Below are positions 5,485 to 12,761 of a stretch of 64,000 nt of DNA, one piece after another. Within the stretch, counting starts at the first letter, position 1; the number at the start of each line of letters is the position of its first letter. The stretch is from assembly GCA_041691135.1 (NCBI GenBank), contig JBEPVF010000003.1, positions 64,001-128,000 on the forward strand, given 5' to 3'. This stretch comes from Candidatus Peribacteria bacterium. GTDB taxonomy: Bacteria; Patescibacteriota; Gracilibacteria; Peribacterales; Peribacteraceae. The notes under the pieces are model-generated. The model ran no database searches. It was not told where the DNA came from and saw only the letters and a program-made list of their open reading frames with translations. The position numbers and the translations under genes were made by a program.

Positions 5485-6930
5485 ATGTCTATGAATAGCG
5501 ATACTCATAATAGCCGCACTCGTTGGATTGCGCTGATTGTTCTCTGTCTTGGCTCACTGATGATCGTGCTCGATACGACCATCGTGAATGTCGCGTTGCC
5601 GTCGATCAGACAGGATCTTGGCTTTTCCGAAACATCGCTCGCGTGGATCGTGAATGCATACATGCTCACATTCGGCGGATTCCTCCTACTGGGTGGTCGG
5701 CTTGGTGATCTGTTCGGTCATCGCAAACTCTTCCTGATTGGCATCGTTCTGTTTGTATTCGCGTCACTCGCTTGTGGCATGGCGAATTCACGGATATTGC
5801 TCATAGCGGCGCGGGCGGTACAGGGACTCGGCGGTGCGGTGGTGTCTGCTGTCGCATTGTCACTGCTCATGAATATGTTTACTGAGGAAGGGGAGCGAGC
5901 CAAAGCTATGGGCGTGTATGGCTTCGTGTCTGCTGGCGGCGGAAGCATCGGCGTGCTGCTCGGCGGCGTGCTCACGAGCACGCTCAATTGGCATTGGATT
6001 TTTCTGGTGAATATTCCGGTCGGTATTCTCGTCTTCATTCTTTCGCTCCTCATACTCCCGGCTCCGCAAAACCTTGCTACCAGCAGGCACATCGATGTGG
6101 CCGGTGCGGTTACCGTCACCACGTCGCTCATGCTGGCCGTGTATGCGATCGTGAACGGCAACGGGGCTGGGTGGACTTCCGGCATTACTCTCGGCTTACT
6201 GGCTGCAGCCGCGCTGCTCATGGCGCTTTTTGTGTGGATCGAATCGCGCATTCATTCGCCACTCGTACCGCTCAGTCTGTTTCGTCTGCGCAATGTGACT
6301 GTCTCGAATATCGTCGGTGTCCTGTGGGCCGCAGCGATGTTCGCCTGGTTCTTCCTGTCCGCTCTCTATTTGCAATTGGTTCTTGGCTACAGTCCGCTGA
6401 TGGTTGGCCTGGCGTTCCTGCCCGCCAACTTGATCATGGCTGCATTCTCTCTCGGCCTGTCGGCCAAGATCGTTATGCGCTTTGGTATCCGTGGGCCACT
6501 CTCGATCGGCTTATTCCTGGCGGCCTCCGGTCTCGCATGGCTTGGACGAGCGCCTATTGGCGGGCACTACGTTCTGGATGTGCTGCCGAGCATGATCGTC
6601 CTCGGCGTCGGCGCCGGTACTGCGTTTAACCCGATGCTCCTCGCTGCCATGAGTGATGTTCCGCCTGACGAATCCGGTCTGGCCTCAGGAGTCGTGAATA
6701 CGTCGTTCATGATGGGCGGTGCTCTCGGACTCGCAATCCTCGCCAGTCTCGCCGCCGCACACACCAGCAGTTTGGTCGCTTCTGGCACCGATCAACTGGT
6801 TGCACTCACCAGCGGGTATCACATCGCATTCTTCGTCGGTGCCATCTTCGCCGCTCTCGCCGCGACACTTGCTGCTGTCTTATTGCGCAAAACAAATGTA
6901 GTAGCTGATGGTCACGTGGGAGGCATTTGA
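5485..6930 (+). CDS. DHA2 (EmrB/QacA) family MFS efflux transporter
   Basis: LDTTIVNVALPSI, GRLGDLFGHRK, WHWIFLVNIPVG; 14-TM pattern; start 5479 or 5485. Confidence 0.95.
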   Translation: MSMNSDTHNSRTRWIALIVLCLGSLMIVLDTTIVNVALPSIRQDLGFSETSLAWIVNAYMLTFGGFLLLGGRLGDLFGHRKLFLIGIVLFVFASLACGMANSRILLIAARAVQGLGGAVVSAVALSLLMNMFTEEGERAKAMGVYGFVSAGGGSIGVLLGGVLTSTLNWHWIFLVNIPVGILVFILSLLILPAPQNLATSRHIDVAGAVTVTTSLMLAVYAIVNGNGAGWTSGITLGLLAAAALLMALFVWIESRIHSPLVPLSLFRLRNVTVSNIVGVLWAAAMFAWFFLSALYLQLVLGYSPLMVGLAFLPANLIMAAFSLGLSAKIVMRFGIRGPLSIGLFLAASGLAWLGRAPIGGHYVLDVLPSMIVLGVGAGTAFNPMLLAAMSDVPPDESGLASGVVNTSFMMGGALGLAILASLAAAHTSSLVASGTDQLVALTSGYHIAFFVGAIFAALAATLAAVLLRKTNVVADGHVGGI

Positions 6931-6950
6931 AAGAAATAATTCTATGGTCT

Positions 6951-6981
6951 TCCACCCAGCGCCCGCGAGGGGCTGGGTGGA
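6951..6981. terminator. GC-rich hairpin between convergent MFS gene and peptide unit A
   Basis: TCCACCCAGC...GCTGGGTGGA 10-bp stem. Confidence 0.7.
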
Positions 6982-7000
6982 GAGACAGGATCGATGGTGG

Positions 7001-7228
7001 TCATTTGCCCTGGTTTTTCTTGTGCTCATCCCACTGTTGCTTGAGAACCATTGCCCGCAAAGCAGACTGGCTTTTTTCGTCCAACTGAATCTGCTCCGCC
7101 TGAGAGACTTGCTGAGTTGGTGCTTCGGAAGGCGACGAGGTTGCGTACCATATAGCGCCCATTGCGACTGCCGCACCGGCCAGCATGCAAGCCACCACGA
7201 TAGCGGCGCTCTTTTGTGGAATCGTCAT
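7001..7228 (-). CDS. Small single-TM protein (75 aa), unit A
   Basis: MTIPQKSAAIVVACMLAGAAVAMGAIWY...; GAGGAG SD upstream. Confidence 0.75.
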   Translation of the reverse strand: MTIPQKSAAIVVACMLAGAAVAMGAIWYATSSPSEAPTQQVSQAEQIQLDEKSQSALRAMVLKQQWDEHKKNQGK

Positions 7229-7396
7229 TCGGTGCTCCTCAAACAGACGTAGGGATCTCCGCCGACGCCGACGTGGCGATCGCACAGAGCTTCTGACTGC
7301 AGCCTCTTGAGCACATGAATACTCAAAAAGCTGCAGTCTGGCGTATTTACCAATCGATCCTGTCAATGATCTCTCGAAACATATACGTATCAAGAA
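7229..7396 (-). ncRNA. Structured leader RNA of unit A (putative)
   Basis: Hairpins 7373-7394 and 7295-7338; 7353-7364 pairs with 3' UTR 6984-6995; homologous to the unit B leader. Confidence 0.65.
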
Positions 7397-7401
7397 AGCC
7401 T

Positions 7402-7429
7402 ATTATAGAATAATATTTAAATAAAGCAA
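7402..7429 (-). promoter_or_regulatory. Promoter of unit A
   Basis: TTGCTT-N16-TATAAT. Confidence 0.7.
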
Positions 7430-7437
7430 TGTTTGAT

Positions 7438-7466
7438 AAAAAGCCAGCACCCGCGAAGGGTGCTGG
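7438..7466 (-). terminator. Intrinsic terminator of unit B
   Basis: CCAGCACCC-TTCGC-GGGTGCTGG followed by CTTTTT on the minus strand. Confidence 0.85.
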
Positions 7467-7492
7467 ACAAAGGACAGGACGACAGCGGTGGT

Positions 7493-7627
7493 TCATTCGA
7501 CTGTTTCGGTCGGAGCCGGTTCTGGCGCCGACTCCACGGCGGAGAAATACATGATGCCGCCGATGACTGAGGCCCCTAGTACGATGAGGCCTACAACAAT
7601 CAGCAAAATTTTTTTCCAGGAGAGCAT
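7493..7627 (-). CDS. Small single-TM peptide (44 aa), unit B; not in the ORF track
   Basis: MLSWKKILLIVVGLIVLGASVIGGIMYFSAVESAPEPAPTETVE*; GGAGG SD upstream. Confidence 0.75.
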   Translation of the reverse strand: MLSWKKILLIVVGLIVLGASVIGGIMYFSAVESAPEPAPTETVE

Positions 7628-7775
7628 CCGCGTTTCCTCCGAAGATCATTTTGAGACCGACGTGATAACTACGCAACTGCAGCACTCTAGATACACCTAT
7701 ATCCAGAGCGCCGCAGTCCGATGAGCTCACCTGTCTATCCTGTCAATGAACGCTTGAAACTATGTGTCTCAAGAA
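7628..7775 (-). ncRNA. Structured leader RNA of unit B (putative)
   Basis: Hairpins 7753-7773 and 7676-7717; 7731-7744 pairs with 3' UTR 7473-7485. Confidence 0.65.
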
Positions 7776-7780
7776 CGCTT

Positions 7781-7808
7781 ATTATAGAATACTATTCAAC
7801 AAAGACAA
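7781..7808 (-). promoter_or_regulatory. Promoter of unit B
   Basis: TTGTCT-N16-TATAAT. Confidence 0.7.
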
Positions 7809-7822
7809 TAATTGATGTGCCT

Positions 7823-8860
7823 TCACAACTCGATTCCCAGTTCTGCACCCACCTCTTTAATTGCTTCTGTAACGTGATGCAAAACAGTCGCGCCGTCTGC
7901 GTTATTGTCGAAGTCGCCTTGTATGCGCCATTTGCCCTGTTCGATATATACCTGCACTCCCATGCTCGCTACCTCACTGCGTTGTAGCCGTCTGCCGATT
8001 TGCGAGAGTACGGCAAAGCGGGCAACAGGATCGGTATGGAACTGCGCTGGATGAACAGGCACACCGTATCTCTGTGCCAGCTGCGTATGTAGAGGGATAT
8101 CTTCCTGCAGGTATTGCGTTATAAAGCCCGGTGCATCGGCTCCCGAATATTTTACTTTTCGCTCCAACGTCACCGGTTCTTTTTCTTGCTCGAACAATGC
8201 TGTCATCTGCTGACGTTGCGGGAGGGTAATCGACGCGAGTTCAGCATCGTAGAGCGGATCGACCTCATTGTGTACCCACCATTCATAGGCAGCCACAATG
8301 TCTTTCTCTGGAACCTTCAGCTGCGCAGCGCGCTCGGAAAAGTCCGCTTGGACGAATGTCGGCCTATGGAGCAGGAACTGAGTGCTGGGATAGGAGAGCC
8401 GTTCTTTGCCCTGGGAAAAAAGAACATGCGCAGCGCTTGCGGCCACGGATGTCGCCAGCGTTTCGATTCCTTCGCTACCGGCTATGCGATTCATATACTG
8501 CGAAAACATGCGCTGAACAGACACTCCGCCCCCGCGTGAATTTATGAGTACGGTTATATCAAATCTTTTTTCCAGCAGCACCCGCAGTAAAGGTGCGGGA
8601 ATTCGTTGGTGTGATGCTTGGACACAGTTTTCTACTGTCGCCTGGATGTTTGGTTCCAGATACTGCAGTCGGTCGATTTCAGCTTGAGGAAAGTTGAATC
8701 CACACACTGGCAGGGCAGCACCAAAAGATTTGTAGGCATTGTCTCGATATCTATGAATGGCAACTTCAGCCGTATTCAAAGCAGTTGCATCGAGCTTGGA
8801 ATTAATGCACCAGAACATCCTTCCTTCAGCATCTGGGGACCGGAGTGCAATAGCAGACAT
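7823..8860 (-). CDS. Divergent ClpP-like (peptidase S14) protein with N- and C-terminal extensions
   Basis: VLINSRGGGV, SVAASAAHVLFSQG, YPSTQFLLHRP align with ClpP INSPGG / AASMG / MIHQP. Confidence 0.7.
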   Translation of the reverse strand: MSAIALRSPDAEGRMFWCINSKLDATALNTAEVAIHRYRDNAYKSFGAALPVCGFNFPQAEIDRLQYLEPNIQATVENCVQASHQRIPAPLLRVLLEKRFDITVLINSRGGGVSVQRMFSQYMNRIAGSEGIETLATSVAASAAHVLFSQGKERLSYPSTQFLLHRPTFVQADFSERAAQLKVPEKDIVAAYEWWVHNEVDPLYDAELASITLPQRQQMTALFEQEKEPVTLERKVKYSGADAPGFITQYLQEDIPLHTQLAQRYGVPVHPAQFHTDPVARFAVLSQIGRRLQRSEVASMGVQVYIEQGKWRIQGDFDNNADGATVLHHVTEAIKEVGAELGIEL

Positions 8861-8949
8861 AATAAAATTAATTTAAAACATTATAGTAATTTAGTCAATA
8901 ATCTTCATTTCATGACGATACATTTACGACTGCATTTTATGCTGACACT

Positions 8950-8984
8950 AAAACCGGAGGCTCGTCTTTCGACGAGCCCCCTGG
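8950..8984 (-). terminator. Intrinsic terminator after the 390-aa ORF
   Basis: GGCTCGTC-GAAA-GACGAGCC core stem with TTTT downstream on the minus strand. Confidence 0.75.
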
Positions 8985-9016
8985 TTCTTTTCTACGGCTG
9001 GTTGCCCCCCAGGGGC

Positions 9017-10189
9017 TTAGGCGATGAGGCCCTGCCGCTTGAGGGCGGCCTCGGCGACGGCTGTGTGCCACACGGCGGTACCGGTTTTGCCCTGACGGAT
9101 CACGGTGTAACCCGTGCCGCCCGAGTTGGGGTAGTTAGCAGCGGATGGATCGACGATGGCGGGATTCCCGTTAACGTTGGTCACGACCACGCCGAATTCC
9201 TTGTGCCAAGGTTCGTCCATGTAGTGGACGCCACCCATGGCCGTCACCGCCCGAACGAAGATCCGGTTGGCGTCCCGGATCCGAACCCATTGCCCCTTGG
9301 TGAATGACGCTCCGCCGTTGTAGCCGATTTGGCGGAAGTGCTCTGTCAGACGGGGATCTTCCTTGATCTTGGCGTGCAAGACGTCGAAGTTGCCCTCGTC
9401 TTCTGTGAACAGCAATCCCGTCACTGTGGTGTCGGGGTAGTCAAACGGGACAGGGCTCATGATCCATCCTGCCTTGTCGATGATCATGCCGTCGAAGGCT
9501 CCGCCTCCGTGCACGATGTGCGAGGCAGGCATCGACACACCTGCGTCGATGCCTTCACGCAGGTCGAGGCAGGCCAGGATGCCTGCGTATTCCTCGACCA
9601 GCGCAGTGCTGACGGGGTCGCGAGGGTCGTTGGCGTCGCGGAGCTGGCCCACGAGGTCAGCCTGCGAGCTGAGACGATCGACGAGCTGCGCGAAGTTATT
9701 GTCTTTCGTTGGACGCGGCCGCGAGAAGATGCGATCAGCCTTGCGGCTGGAGAGCAAAATCTGTGCCGGAGTCAGATCACCGCCGTCACCAACGATTTGC
9801 AGGAACGTTTTCTGATGGCCCGCACGCTGGCGGGCCGGACGCCGGAGGACTTCGAAGGCGCAGTAGGCGAACTCGCCATCCGAGGCCTCCTGAATGAGAG
9901 CATCCATGCGCTCGATGCCGCGAATGACGGTCTCAACGCCAATGACTTTGCCATTCTTGACACCACCACCCAGCTTCATGCTGGAGTTGGCGTTGGCGTA
10001 GATATCGACCCTGCCCTCGTACACCGGTCGCGTCATGCAGCCGGTGAGCTCCGCCATCACGACAGTGTCGTTCTGGGGGAGCAGCTGAACGTCCGTGTAG
10101 CCGTCATCATCATCCATGATGCCTTCCTTGGCCTTGTCGAGCGGGGTCGTCCGCCAATCCTTGACGGGAACCAGATAGGACTTTCTCAA
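9017..10189 (-). CDS. Hypothetical protein (390 aa)
   Basis: Long ORF with TTG start, GGAGG SD, and its own promoter and terminator; family not recognised. Confidence 0.75.
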   Translation of the reverse strand: MRKSYLVPVKDWRTTPLDKAKEGIMDDDDGYTDVQLLPQNDTVVMAELTGCMTRPVYEGRVDIYANANSSMKLGGGVKNGKVIGVETVIRGIERMDALIQEASDGEFAYCAFEVLRRPARQRAGHQKTFLQIVGDGGDLTPAQILLSSRKADRIFSRPRPTKDNNFAQLVDRLSSQADLVGQLRDANDPRDPVSTALVEEYAGILACLDLREGIDAGVSMPASHIVHGGGAFDGMIIDKAGWIMSPVPFDYPDTTVTGLLFTEDEGNFDVLHAKIKEDPRLTEHFRQIGYNGGASFTKGQWVRIRDANRIFVRAVTAMGGVHYMDEPWHKEFGVVVTNVNGNPAIVDPSAANYPNSGGTGYTVIRQGKTGTAVWHTAVAEAALKRQGLIA

Positions 10190-10315
10190 GAGTCACCTCC
10201 ACTGAATCTGCGCTTCCGTTCAGGTAACTCTCTCCGCCACAGCTTTTTGGTTTAAAAAACCAGCCGATGGCGAAAAGAACTTTGTTATTTTCACATAAAA
10301 TGTTATAAATGTCAA
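10188..10315 (-). promoter_or_regulatory. Promoter and structured 5' UTR occluding SD/start
   Basis: TTGACA-N17-GAAAAT; stems 10234-10244/10262-10273 and 10188-10198/10222-10232. Confidence 0.55.
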
Positions 10316-10371
10316 TATATGCCAATAAAATGCACATATTGGCTAAAATGAGTGTTTTAAGCATTCCACAG

Positions 10372-11133
10372 TTAGGCATCCATTCTTACCTCTTTAGTTC
10401 CTCGGTGTTCTATATCTCCGGCCAGAATAATGTAATCGCCGACAAATTTGACGATGATCTCTTTGCCCGTTGGCTGTGTAATCGTGAATGACGATTCGCT
10501 GCTCCTGTCGTTAAGTACTGCCGCCAGTGCAATGCTGCCCGAGCCGCACGATGTTTCGTGAATCAACGTATCGGTGTCGCGCACGTACACGTACGGGTCG
10601 ATCACTACCGTGTTGCCTTCTTCCCGTGCATAGATCACGCCGACGGCCGGCAGATGTTTGTAGTCTTTGATCAACTCCTGGGTCAGTTGTTCGTTCGGCT
10701 CGGCCCAGCATAGGATGTGCGTGATACCTTTGAGTTCCACGATGGAGCTATTTTCGTCTACATGATCAATGTTCTGTATCAATGACAATGGCAGGTGTAC
10801 AGAACTGTCTGTGGGAGAGGCGAAGGCAGGGATAAGTTCATCGATGCCTGAAGTCCGCAGCGTGATGCGATCTTTACCGATTTTGTTGGCCCAGTAGAAG
10901 GCAGTCGAGCGTGTGGCATTGCCGCAGAATTCTCCGCCCATCATCTGCAGCTGCACGTCTATCTCACCGGTCGGGTCAGTCTGCAGAAAACCCACTTGTT
11001 CGATCTCCGGATATTCCTTCATGATCGTACTCGCCACCTGCGCCCGGTCTTCGGATGCGATGGGTATTTCGACGAGCGCCGTGGTATTGCCGCCCGGCCA
11101 CAGTATCTGAAAGGGGATGGTCGATGGTGCCAT
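10372..11133 (-). CDS. DapF-fold, CntK (histidine racemase)-like amino-acid racemase/epimerase
   Basis: PGGNTT, EQVGF, MMGGEFCGNA and ETSCGSG two-cysteine motifs. Confidence 0.85.
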   Translation of the reverse strand: MAPSTIPFQILWPGGNTTALVEIPIASEDRAQVASTIMKEYPEIEQVGFLQTDPTGEIDVQLQMMGGEFCGNATRSTAFYWANKIGKDRITLRTSGIDELIPAFASPTDSSVHLPLSLIQNIDHVDENSSIVELKGITHILCWAEPNEQLTQELIKDYKHLPAVGVIYAREEGNTVVIDPYVYVRDTDTLIHETSCGSGSIALAAVLNDRSSESSFTITQPTGKEIIVKFVGDYIILAGDIEHRGTKEVRMDA

Positions 11134-11138
11134 AGTTG

Positions 11139-12761
11139 TTATAGAGATGCGCAGGGGGCAATCTTTTCGCGCAGGTTGGTATGGCGCGTGATGTCCTCCG
11201 CGGAAATGGTGAGGAGTTCTTTATTGCGTTCGGCTTCGGGATAAATGATGGAATACAGTTCGGGCATCATCGGATTCATCGCTTCTGTCAGCGAGATATT
11301 CTTCGATTCCTCGACGAACAGCTGCCACCAATTTTCTTTGCCGTAGAGCAACAGGTCGATGCCGGTTGCCGGCACGAGCTCGCCGGCGGCAGTCTCGAGG
11401 AATGCCACGTTCACGTCGCCGACAATCTCTTTGGTCTGGGCGCGGGCACAGACTTCGATACTGCGGTACTTGCCGCGATCCACCTGCATCTTGATGTAGG
11501 CATTCTTCATGAAGGTGAGGTAATTCACCTGACTAAAGCCGCCGAGGCATTTGAGACCGTAGTAGAAGCACAATACGGTGTACACAAGCATGCTGCTCGG
11601 GATCAATTCCTTGCTTAAAAGTCCCTCACGAATGGCTTCCGGTGTGATGTCGTACGAGTATTTGCCATCGTCGGTCACCAGTTTGTTGCCTATTTTCTTC
11701 AGGCCCATTCGGTACCGTTCGCCCTTGGGCAGTGCCCAGAACATGTACGTTCCCCAATTGTCGGCAACGGAGAATGTTCCGGTGATACCCTGGAAATACT
11801 CATTGATGAGCGGATCACACTCTGGATCGAACAGGAAGTGATTGATCGTTGTGTCTTCGTTGAGGTGAAATTCTAGGATCAGCTGCGACACGATGCTCTC
11901 GATTTCCAGATAAACAAGGTTCGGAACGCGCGTTGTTCCTTTGCTACTGCCCAGCAATTTTTTCCACAGCGTGTAATTCGTCTTCGTCACCTGGTCGCCG
12001 TAGGATTTGCAACTCAAGATGTCATCTTGCTCATAAATCTCTGCAAAAATGTCGTTGAATTTGTTGGCAGTCGCCTGATCCATGCAGCCGCTCTTGACCC
12101 TTTCGGCGATGCCTTTGTGTAAATTCTTTAGGTCGTTCTTGTCGTATGGCTTGAAGTTATAGACGGGGCACAATCTGTACTGAGCTGCAAAAAACGCAGT
12201 TGAGTTAAAATGTGTACTGCCATCATCGGCCTTACTGTGGAATACCACACCGCGCGGGAAGGATGAGTTGTTTTGCGAGACTGCCGCGCAGGCCAGAACA
12301 ATCACGTTATCGAGTGTTTCGTTGTATTCGCCGAATGGTGTTGCAATCAGCAGGTTGGAATTGATGAAAAACGGATGCGTGAGTGGACCATGATGGTCAG
12401 CTGTACTCACGAAGTAGTACTGACTCAATTGTTTGACGACGCTGGCCGCCACTTTGGGTCCAAGTAGGCGCGAGGTTTCCTTTTCTACAACAGATAACAG
12501 TTGCTCCTGTCGCAGGGCGATCGGCGGATTCAGGTTCACATCGATGTAATCTTTGGCGTAGTCGTAAAGCATCTTGTGGCCATGCTTCTCCAAGATTTCC
12601 TTGAGCACGGGCTTCTTGGCCAGTACCGCGTCTTTTAAGCCGGTGAACAGTTTATCAAACGCATTCTCACTGAGAGAACTGCCGGTAAGTTCCATACAGG
12701 AAACATGGCCGGTCGCGTCGGTAGTTCCTTCGCTGATAAGGCTAGAGGTGGCTGGTCCCAT
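11139..12761 (-). CDS. Hypothetical 540-aa protein, possible ligase
   Basis: Long ORF ending 5 nt before the racemase start; STADHHGP and LGGFSQVNYL motifs. Confidence 0.75.
   Translation of the reverse strand: MGPATSSLISEGTTDATGHVSCMELTGSSLSENAFDKLFTGLKDAVLAKKPVLKEILEKHGHKMLYDYAKDYIDVNLNPPIALRQEQLLSVVEKETSRLLGPKVAASVVKQLSQYYFVSTADHHGPLTHPFFINSNLLIATPFGEYNETLDNVIVLACAAVSQNNSSFPRGVVFHSKADDGSTHFNSTAFFAAQYRLCPVYNFKPYDKNDLKNLHKGIAERVKSGCMDQATANKFNDIFAEIYEQDDILSCKSYGDQVTKTNYTLWKKLLGSSKGTTRVPNLVYLEIESIVSQLILEFHLNEDTTINHFLFDPECDPLINEYFQGITGTFSVADNWGTYMFWALPKGERYRMGLKKIGNKLVTDDGKYSYDITPEAIREGLLSKELIPSSMLVYTVLCFYYGLKCLGGFSQVNYLTFMKNAYIKMQVDRGKYRSIEVCARAQTKEIVGDVNVAFLETAAGELVPATGIDLLLYGKENWWQLFVEESKNISLTEAMNPMMPELYSIIYPEAERNKELLTISAEDITRHTNLREKIAPCASL

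Follow-up and report, generated by a model that had tools for sequence, protein, structure and literature searches.

A structured leader family in Peribacteraceae that pairs with the stop-codon region of diverse genes

Two adjacent small genes in the genome of a Candidatus Peribacteria bacterium (assembly GCA_041691135.1) carry structured leaders, and these leaders belong to a family of RNAs found in many Peribacteraceae. The stretch analyzed (hereafter the window) comprises 64,000 nucleotides (nt) of contig JBEPVF010000003.1, positions 64,001 to 128,000 of the forward strand, and coordinates given without a prefix are window positions. The window's own genome (G000) has 1.74 Mb in 35 contigs and is 92% complete. 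The two units lie in tandem, head-to-tail, on the minus strand (unit B, 7808-7437; unit A, 7429-6951) and share one order of parts (Table 1). In the original prediction the pair was described as a new type I toxin-antitoxin-like or dual-function RNA family, and all eight parts that it listed are present where it placed them.

Table 1. Features of the two tandem units. SD, Shine-Dalgarno sequence; ORF, open reading frame; TM, transmembrane; P2, hairpin 2 as named in the family.
Feature	Position	Strand	Basis
Unit B promoter-like site, TTGTCT-N16-TATAAT	7781..7808	-	Consensus scan (10/12 matches) and reading
Unit B hairpin 1, CTTGAGAC / GTTTCAAG	7753..7773	-	Reading, folding, A-B comparison
Unit B conserved motif CATTGACAGGAT and closing-helix 5′ arm GACAGGATAGACAGGTG	7728..7748	-	Word search, folding, 71-locus arm test
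Unit B hairpin 2 (P2), 19 bp including 3 G-U pairs	7676..7717	-	Folding, A-B comparison, family covariation
Unit B common CACGTCGG, predicted to pair with the 5′ arm in the leader-only fold	7657..7664	-	Reading, A-B comparison
Unit B SD, GGAGGA	7635..7640	-	Reading, 16S-tail scoring
Unit B ORF, 44 aa, one TM helix	7493..7627	-	Translation, protein-collection search without relatives
Unit B 3′ arm CACCGCTGTCGTCCTGTC, begins 3 nt past the stop codon	7473..7490	-	Folding, arm test
Unit B intrinsic-terminator-like hairpin and T-run	7437..7466	-	Terminator scan
Unit A promoter-like site, TTGCTT-N16-TATAAT	7402..7429	-	Reading; absent from the consensus-scan list
Unit A hairpin 1, CTTGATAC / GTTTCGAG	7373..7394	-	Reading, folding, A-B comparison
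Unit A conserved motif and 5′ arm GACAGGATCGATTGGT	7349..7368	-	Word search, folding, arm test
Unit A hairpin 2 (P2)	7296..7337	-	Folding, A-B comparison, family covariation
Unit A common CACGTCGG	7268..7275	-	Reading, A-B comparison
Unit A SD, GAGGAG	7235..7240	-	Reading, 16S-tail scoring
Unit A ORF, 75 aa, one TM helix	7001..7228	-	Translation, protein-collection search without relatives
Unit A 3′ arm ACCACCATCGATCCTGTC, first base is the last base of the stop codon	6984..7001	-	Folding, arm test
Unit A 3′ GC hairpin, without T-run	6952..6980	-	Reading, folding, terminator scan

Some of the predicted details stand in part. Both sites of the form TTGnnT-N16-TATAAT are there, although the consensus scan lists only that of unit B and the site of unit A was recognized by reading. 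Co-varying hairpins had been claimed for the pair; this holds for hairpin 2, where 19 pairs can be compared between A and B (five changed on both sides, six on one side, none broken), but not for hairpin 1, which has one-sided changes only. Each hairpin 2 contains, by reading, three G-U pairs, which would be mismatches if read on the opposite strand. A 3′ hairpin is present in both units as proposed, but only that of unit B resembles a terminator. The leaders of A and B are about 80% identical, and CATTGACAGGAT has two exact occurrences in the whole window (7748-7737 and 7368-7357). Each peptide has the one hydrophobic helix ascribed to it, and the two are paralogous (36% identity over 39 aa, E 2e-6). 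The units are best explained as paralogous monocistronic genes that encode small one-TM peptides. Judged by eye, hairpin 1 has a 5′ strand (GCGUUCUUGAGAC...) that looks like the motif that follows it (GCGUUCAUUGACAG...) in both leaders (7778-7730 and 7399-7350), and it may be that the conserved motif was duplicated there.

When the full units are folded, the leader of each pairs with the stretch just past its own stop codon. Minimum free energies are -145.4 and -191.7 kcal/mol (z -6.9 and -6.1), and none of 100 shuffled sequences was equally stable. The helix that closes unit A has 16 paired bases, and that of unit B has 17 with one bulge. Scored against the 16S rRNA tail of the same genome, the SD sequences of the two units reach -7.5 and -6.5 kcal/mol; with the best candidate start allowed for each frame, 2 of 50 and 3 of 50 long frames in the window equal these values, in line with the prediction that so strong an SD is rare here. 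The 16S 3′ tail of G000 ends in ...GGAUGGAACAUUUCCUUA (L141, G000:C9:1433-5901, with the 16S 3′ end near G000:C9:2933). Where the anti-SD core is usually CCUCC, this 16S rRNA has UUUCC, so the best SD would be AAGGAAA-like, and GGAGG would pair through G-U.

Searches of existing catalogs did not place the leaders in any described family. At gathering thresholds, Rfam 15 identifies only tRNAs in the window; at permissive E-values it yields only sub-threshold microRNA-type noise over the units, and the leaders of six related loci likewise have no Rfam match. A BLAST-level DNA search of 61 relatives returned nothing real outside G000 (one chance 22-base match, E 0.005). Covariance models were positive, so the homology is detectable by such models alone. 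A model built from only the two window leaders (R1) has matches in other genera of Peribacteraceae, with E-values of 4.5e-9 in G171 and 2.9e-7 in G020 and with two tandem copies in G120. A refined model of eight sequences (R2), which covers the leader only and has the window units among its seeds, gives about 130 matches at E≤0.1 in 68 of 151 Peribacteraceae genomes and 42 of 84 genera, with up to eight per genome. At E≤0.001 it has no match in 135 genomes of 33 other families in the class, and the same search recovered 4 of 15 Peribacteraceae. R2 gives the two window units, which are seeds of it, 80.6 and 78.2 bits; the retrieval of other members by R1 is independent of that seeding. Within G000, the own-genome and covariance-model searches find just these two copies. 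We define the family by three features, all present in the window units: the motif UC(A/U)UUGA(C/G)AG, a P2 no shorter than 16 bp, and complementarity of the 5′ arm to the stop-codon region.

Covariation among homologs is extensive in P2. In an alignment of 96 distinct sequences, two-sided changes occur at 16 of 16 pairs and 90.2% of the cells are paired. None of 500 shuffles reached the observed values, and sliding the register of the whole structure left 29-52% paired; a version with 33 sequences was also run. The hairpin is conserved in sequence as well, with A-U at its base in 91 of 96 sequences and a G-C/C-G step in 92 and 91 of 96. Non-pairs recur at a few inner positions, and G-U is fixed at set positions.

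Two subtypes of leader can be distinguished. Subtype I, which includes the window units, has a variable 5′-terminal hairpin followed by UC(A/U)UUGACAG. Subtype II begins at (A/G)UGUUCUUUSAGAGCAUCG, a few bases past a TTGACA-N17-TAnAAT promoter. Its first bases could form a 5′-terminal mini-hairpin, (A/G)UGUUC-UUUSA-GARCAU (alignment A9, columns 1-17), with 74% of cells paired and two-sided changes at three of six pairs. There is also a small hairpin ahead of the SD in subtype II (CCAG-CGGnnnn-CUGG, CCGA..UCGG or CCGG..CCGG). At 21 of 74 units the SD core lies inside a perfect local hairpin of at least 4 bp, often CUCC-YGAAA-GGAG, a count made without a background control. In the 3′ untranslated regions (UTRs) of subtype II units such as L058, L039 and L047, several CUUGA words follow the 3′ arm and precede a terminator conserved in sequence, AACCUCCGCG...CGCGGGGGUUCUUUU; CUUUGA also occurs within the 5′ motif.

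The covariance models contain the leader only, so the 3′ partner provides an independent test of the fold-back. We used 71 loci in which a complete ORF begins within 110 nt of the match; ORF calling demanded an SD-like word, which biases the set. The mean pairing energy of a 5′ arm is -18.1 kcal/mol with the stop-codon region of its own locus and -12.9 kcal/mol with those of other loci, and none of 5000 permutations was as low. The locus's own stop region ranks best in 14 of 71 cases and in the top tenth in 34, and windows offset by -120, -60, +60 or +120 nt show no difference between own and other loci. Across 1.5-2.6 kb downstream, the best duplex falls at the stop region in 26 of 71 loci, where about 1.8 would be expected by chance. 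At several loci with a mis-called ORF (e.g. L034, L096, L106, L051), the best duplex is found where the long ORF terminates. A duplex of -15 kcal/mol or lower is present at 56 loci; at 39 of these the helix begins inside the stop codon or ahead of it, and at 53 no more than 10 nt away. The arms vary widely among loci with complementarity kept, as in GGCAGUU/AACUGCC, GGAGUUCAAG/CUUGAACUCC and ACGAUUGAUGAAU/AUUCGUCAAUCGU. The pairing of a leader with its own 3′ UTR, predicted for the two window units, is conserved in the family. Covariation is seen in P2 and in the 5′-3′ helix, the stop codon anchors the 3′ arm, and the leader is supported as an uncatalogued structured-RNA family with real covariation and 5′-3′ fold-back.

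Complementary arms on either side of diverse ORFs, in units that are often tandem and multi-copy and, in the window, in a neighborhood that looks strain-specific, could also be the terminal inverted repeats of mobile gene cassettes, i.e. a DNA-level element. We consider this extremely unlikely, because the arms are inside the transcribed region (both lie between promoter and terminator), G-U pairs are frequent (153/1244 in the closing helices, besides the fixed positions in P2) and the antisense strand is scored far lower by both models. Furthermore, the arms differ among loci yet remain complementary, the leader precedes a pyruvate-phosphate-dikinase-like (PPDK-like) gene in both G101 and G114, and no transposase or recombinase adjoins the units in the window.

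The genes behind the leader, which we refer to as its cargo, are diverse. Sixty additional loci were fetched for this survey. The cargo includes Fae (PF08714, E 1.8e-72) and xylose-isomerase-like TIM barrels (PF01261, E 3.9e-33), and by reading only we recognized Gfo/Idh/MocA-like (oxidoreductase-like) and SDR-like ORFs besides the PPDK-like gene. The commonest cargo is an orphan family of about 180-290 aa (L030, L037, L058 and others; e.g. L058:380-1054), often in tandem and in multiple copies. It has no Pfam match, and among ten of its ORFs searched against PHROGs a single one had a match, in one marginal row (E 0.007). An AlphaFold2 model of this family has a mean pLDDT of 77; a fold search with it found nothing at E≤0.001 and some weak C-type-lectin-like rows, the best being the C-terminal domain of Bdellovibrio Bd2740 (E 0.017). 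Small membrane peptides are few: the two of the window, one of 54 aa in G171, one of 56 aa in G110 (L081) and one of 68 aa in G121 (L043).

This range of cargo bears directly on the proposal that the units are type I toxin-antitoxin-like modules, in which membrane toxins would be encoded by mRNAs locked by the fold-back and a masked SD and activated by processing. The type I toxin mRNAs of hok/Sok and AapA1/IsoA1 encode a small hydrophobic peptide and are highly folded, with 5′-3′ end pairing and SD masking. The window units are alike in peptide, folding and end pairing and, by prediction, in SD masking: the peptides are small with one TM helix, the fold-back is real, and the SD has a predicted probability of being unpaired in the full mRNA of 0.02 in B and 0.16 in A. 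This predicted masking, by a segment of the coding region, exceeds that of codon-order shuffles, of which 0 of 50 (B) and 4 of 50 (A) were as low. However, the predicted anti-SD segments of A and B are at non-homologous codons, and the same leader and helix flank Fae, the TIM barrels, the orphan family and other genes. Diverse cargo behind one leader means that the RNA design does not mark toxin genes. From the sequence we found no antisense RNA and no overlapping leader ORF of the kind that would complete the resemblance to hok/Sok and AapA1/IsoA1, and no sequence or Rfam match to them. As the prediction had noted, no antisense antitoxin promoter is apparent, the consensus scan giving no promoter-like site on the plus strand at 6800-7950.

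A collection of 5.8 billion proteins contains no relatives of either peptide, only the peptides themselves. Pfam has nothing for the 44-aa peptide and only a sub-threshold DUF6023 for the 75-aa peptide (17.1 bits, cut-off 26.8), and neither Pfam nor Rfam gives a match to a toxin family. For the 44-aa peptide, PHROGs adds just one weak row, 'membrane protein' (E 0.007). Overall we regard a type I module as very unlikely. What survives of the predicted family is a new structured RNA; its toxin-specific character is not supported, given the enzyme and orphan cargo, and the fold-back is not specific to a toxin gene. The predicted SD masking is the one toxin-like trait left. The window peptides are best explained as cargo and are not demonstrably toxins. 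For annotation, this is a warning that structure alone is insufficient to call small hydrophobic ORFs in folded mRNAs toxins.

The closest parallel that we found is the hbs mRNA of Bacillus subtilis, in which a 14-bp interaction between leader and 3′ UTR limits cleavage by RNase Y, ribosomes on a strong SD block RNase J1, and the role of the interaction has been demonstrated by mutation (Braun, Durand and Condon 2017, PMC5737220). It is a short monocistronic mRNA whose structured 5′ UTR carries hairpins and a strong SD, and a segment of the leader serves as the arm that forms the helix of about 14 bp with the 3′ UTR. The units described here have the same parts list, down to the short distance that separates the SD from a 3′ arm and the terminal hairpin, and so the best reading is a clamp in cis that holds the reading frame at either end and controls decay. 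Genes for RNase III, RNase J (PF17770, 83.6 bits) and RNase Y (PF12072, 55.3 bits) are present in G000, and RNase E/G was not found in it. Judged by these genes, the predicted nuclease set is a decay machinery of the B. subtilis type, as in the hbs model.

We therefore favor, with a probability of roughly 0.6, a lineage-wide cis-acting module that closes the 5′ UTR onto the 3′ UTR and serves as a general control or stability device, by a mechanism that we infer. The cassette opens with the leader (here with a 5′-terminal hairpin), UC(A/U)UUGA(C/G)AG and a 5′ arm that varies, followed by P2, a strong SD and an ORF of any kind. Next comes the 3′ arm, which begins in or right past the stop codon and is the pairing partner of the 5′ arm, and a hairpin forms the end. 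The helix would clamp both ends of the reading frame in cis and could protect the leader and the region near the stop codon against RNase Y as well as 5′ and 3′ exonucleases, and ribosomes on the strong SD may block RNase J, by analogy with hbs. Since the stop codon is within the helix, each terminating ribosome would have to open it, and the fate of the mRNA is thus probably tied to its own translation.

Several observations weigh against this module. Predicted SD access in the window units is unchanged with or without the 3′ arm, so folding does not indicate a direct translational role of the helix. The stop-region duplex is weaker than -15 kcal/mol in 15 of 71 loci, and at a few loci the best partner lies 20-60 nt beyond the stop or none was found. 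The closing helix is only modestly better in the sense than in the antisense orientation (-18.1 versus -17.1 kcal/mol, 42 versus 29 loci, p 0.027). The frequency of strong SDs across the family is circular, because an SD-like word was demanded in the ORF calls. Finally, the 3′ partner in hbs lies immediately before the terminator instead of at the stop codon, which makes the analogy partial. Moreover, hbs is a single gene with a demonstrated interaction, whereas the family described here is a conserved motif with about 130 matches in 68 genomes, diverse cargo and a putative function.

A further step, possible but doubtful, would be that Peribacteraceae, which are ultra-small bacteria, build a subset of their mRNAs as closed panhandles whose stop codon sits in the helix, so that terminating ribosomes melt it and each mRNA senses its own translation. 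Copies that are not translated would then remain closed, and would be kept in protected storage or else be marked for RNase III. Translated copies would open at each round and might return the ribosome to the strong SD, which is some 100 nt away from the 5′ arm. If true, the panhandle would be to bacteria what the closed loop is to eukaryotes, but encoded in RNA only and portable between genes.

Two other explanations keep the RNA and give it a different role. The leader could be a riboregulator of a regulon, with a factor acting in trans (an RNA-binding protein, a small RNA or a small ligand) that binds the conserved single-stranded motif and P2 and switches translation of the regulon, the helix being scaffolding only. 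The sequence conservation of the motif and parts of P2, which goes beyond pairing, is compatible with this, as are the annotated cargo, largely carbon metabolism, and the extra small hairpins of many subtype II leaders, including the uncontrolled count of SDs in local hairpins. We nevertheless judge such a regulator unlikely. It leaves the stop-codon anchor of the 3′ arm unexplained, the structure is simple for a ligand aptamer, and no candidate factor was identified. The complementarity of the motif to the organism's own 16S rRNA is no better than that of shuffled motifs, a result on which we also dropped the idea of a translational enhancer.

Alternatively, P2 (about 19-22 bp) and the closing helix could be stalks cut by RNase III, which would mature or destroy the mRNA. 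RNase III substrates elsewhere include the stems of rRNA precursors and the early mRNAs of phage T7. The enzyme is encoded in G000, P2 is long and nearly perfect with recurrent inner non-pairs, and the closing helix extends to 12-25 bp; many closing helices, however, are interrupted and under two helical turns, and we consider processing of this kind quite unlikely.

The clamping module also differs from other regulatory pairings. In icaR of Staphylococcus aureus the 3′ UTR reportedly pairs with the SD itself, whereas the 5′ arm here is about 100 nt upstream of the SD and its pairing leaves predicted SD access unchanged. The cis-regulatory leaders in Rfam likewise place a conserved, covarying 5′ UTR structure ahead of a set of genes, but the structure described here is partly closed by a partner beyond the ORF. 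In the wider literature, UTR pairing in bacterial mRNAs is represented by single-gene cases such as hbs and icaR, the latter an mRNA whose 3′ UTR pairs with its own 5′ UTR (PMC3868564). Among papers on Peribacteria UTRs and on RNA motifs or covariation in Peregrinibacteria, we found none on such an element. What is new is therefore not 5′/3′ UTR pairing in bacteria, which is known, but a conserved, portable and stop-codon-anchored UTR pair in a lineage of the candidate phyla radiation (CPR).

In the Peribacteraceae, end pairing of mRNAs takes the form of a conserved modular cassette that recurs at many loci, in 68 of the 151 sampled genomes, with natural compensatory evidence and a fixed stop-codon anchor. 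The loci constitute a ready comparative data set on what mRNA end pairing does in bacteria, and they add a lineage-specific RNA family for CPR organisms, whose gene regulation is almost unknown. The cassette also suggests portable UTR pairs as controls of mRNA stability.

Directly upstream of unit B, in the region 7823-12761, is a gene for a ClpP-like protein of 345 aa (PF00574, E 5.9e-8), which as a query had no match in four genomes of the same genus. It is followed by ORFs of 390, 253 and 540 aa without Pfam or PHROGs match. G000 exceeds its relatives in size, and this neighborhood may be an accessory island. In G120, a tRNA gene (L030:1272-1344) lies about 160 nt upstream of the first of the two tandem units.

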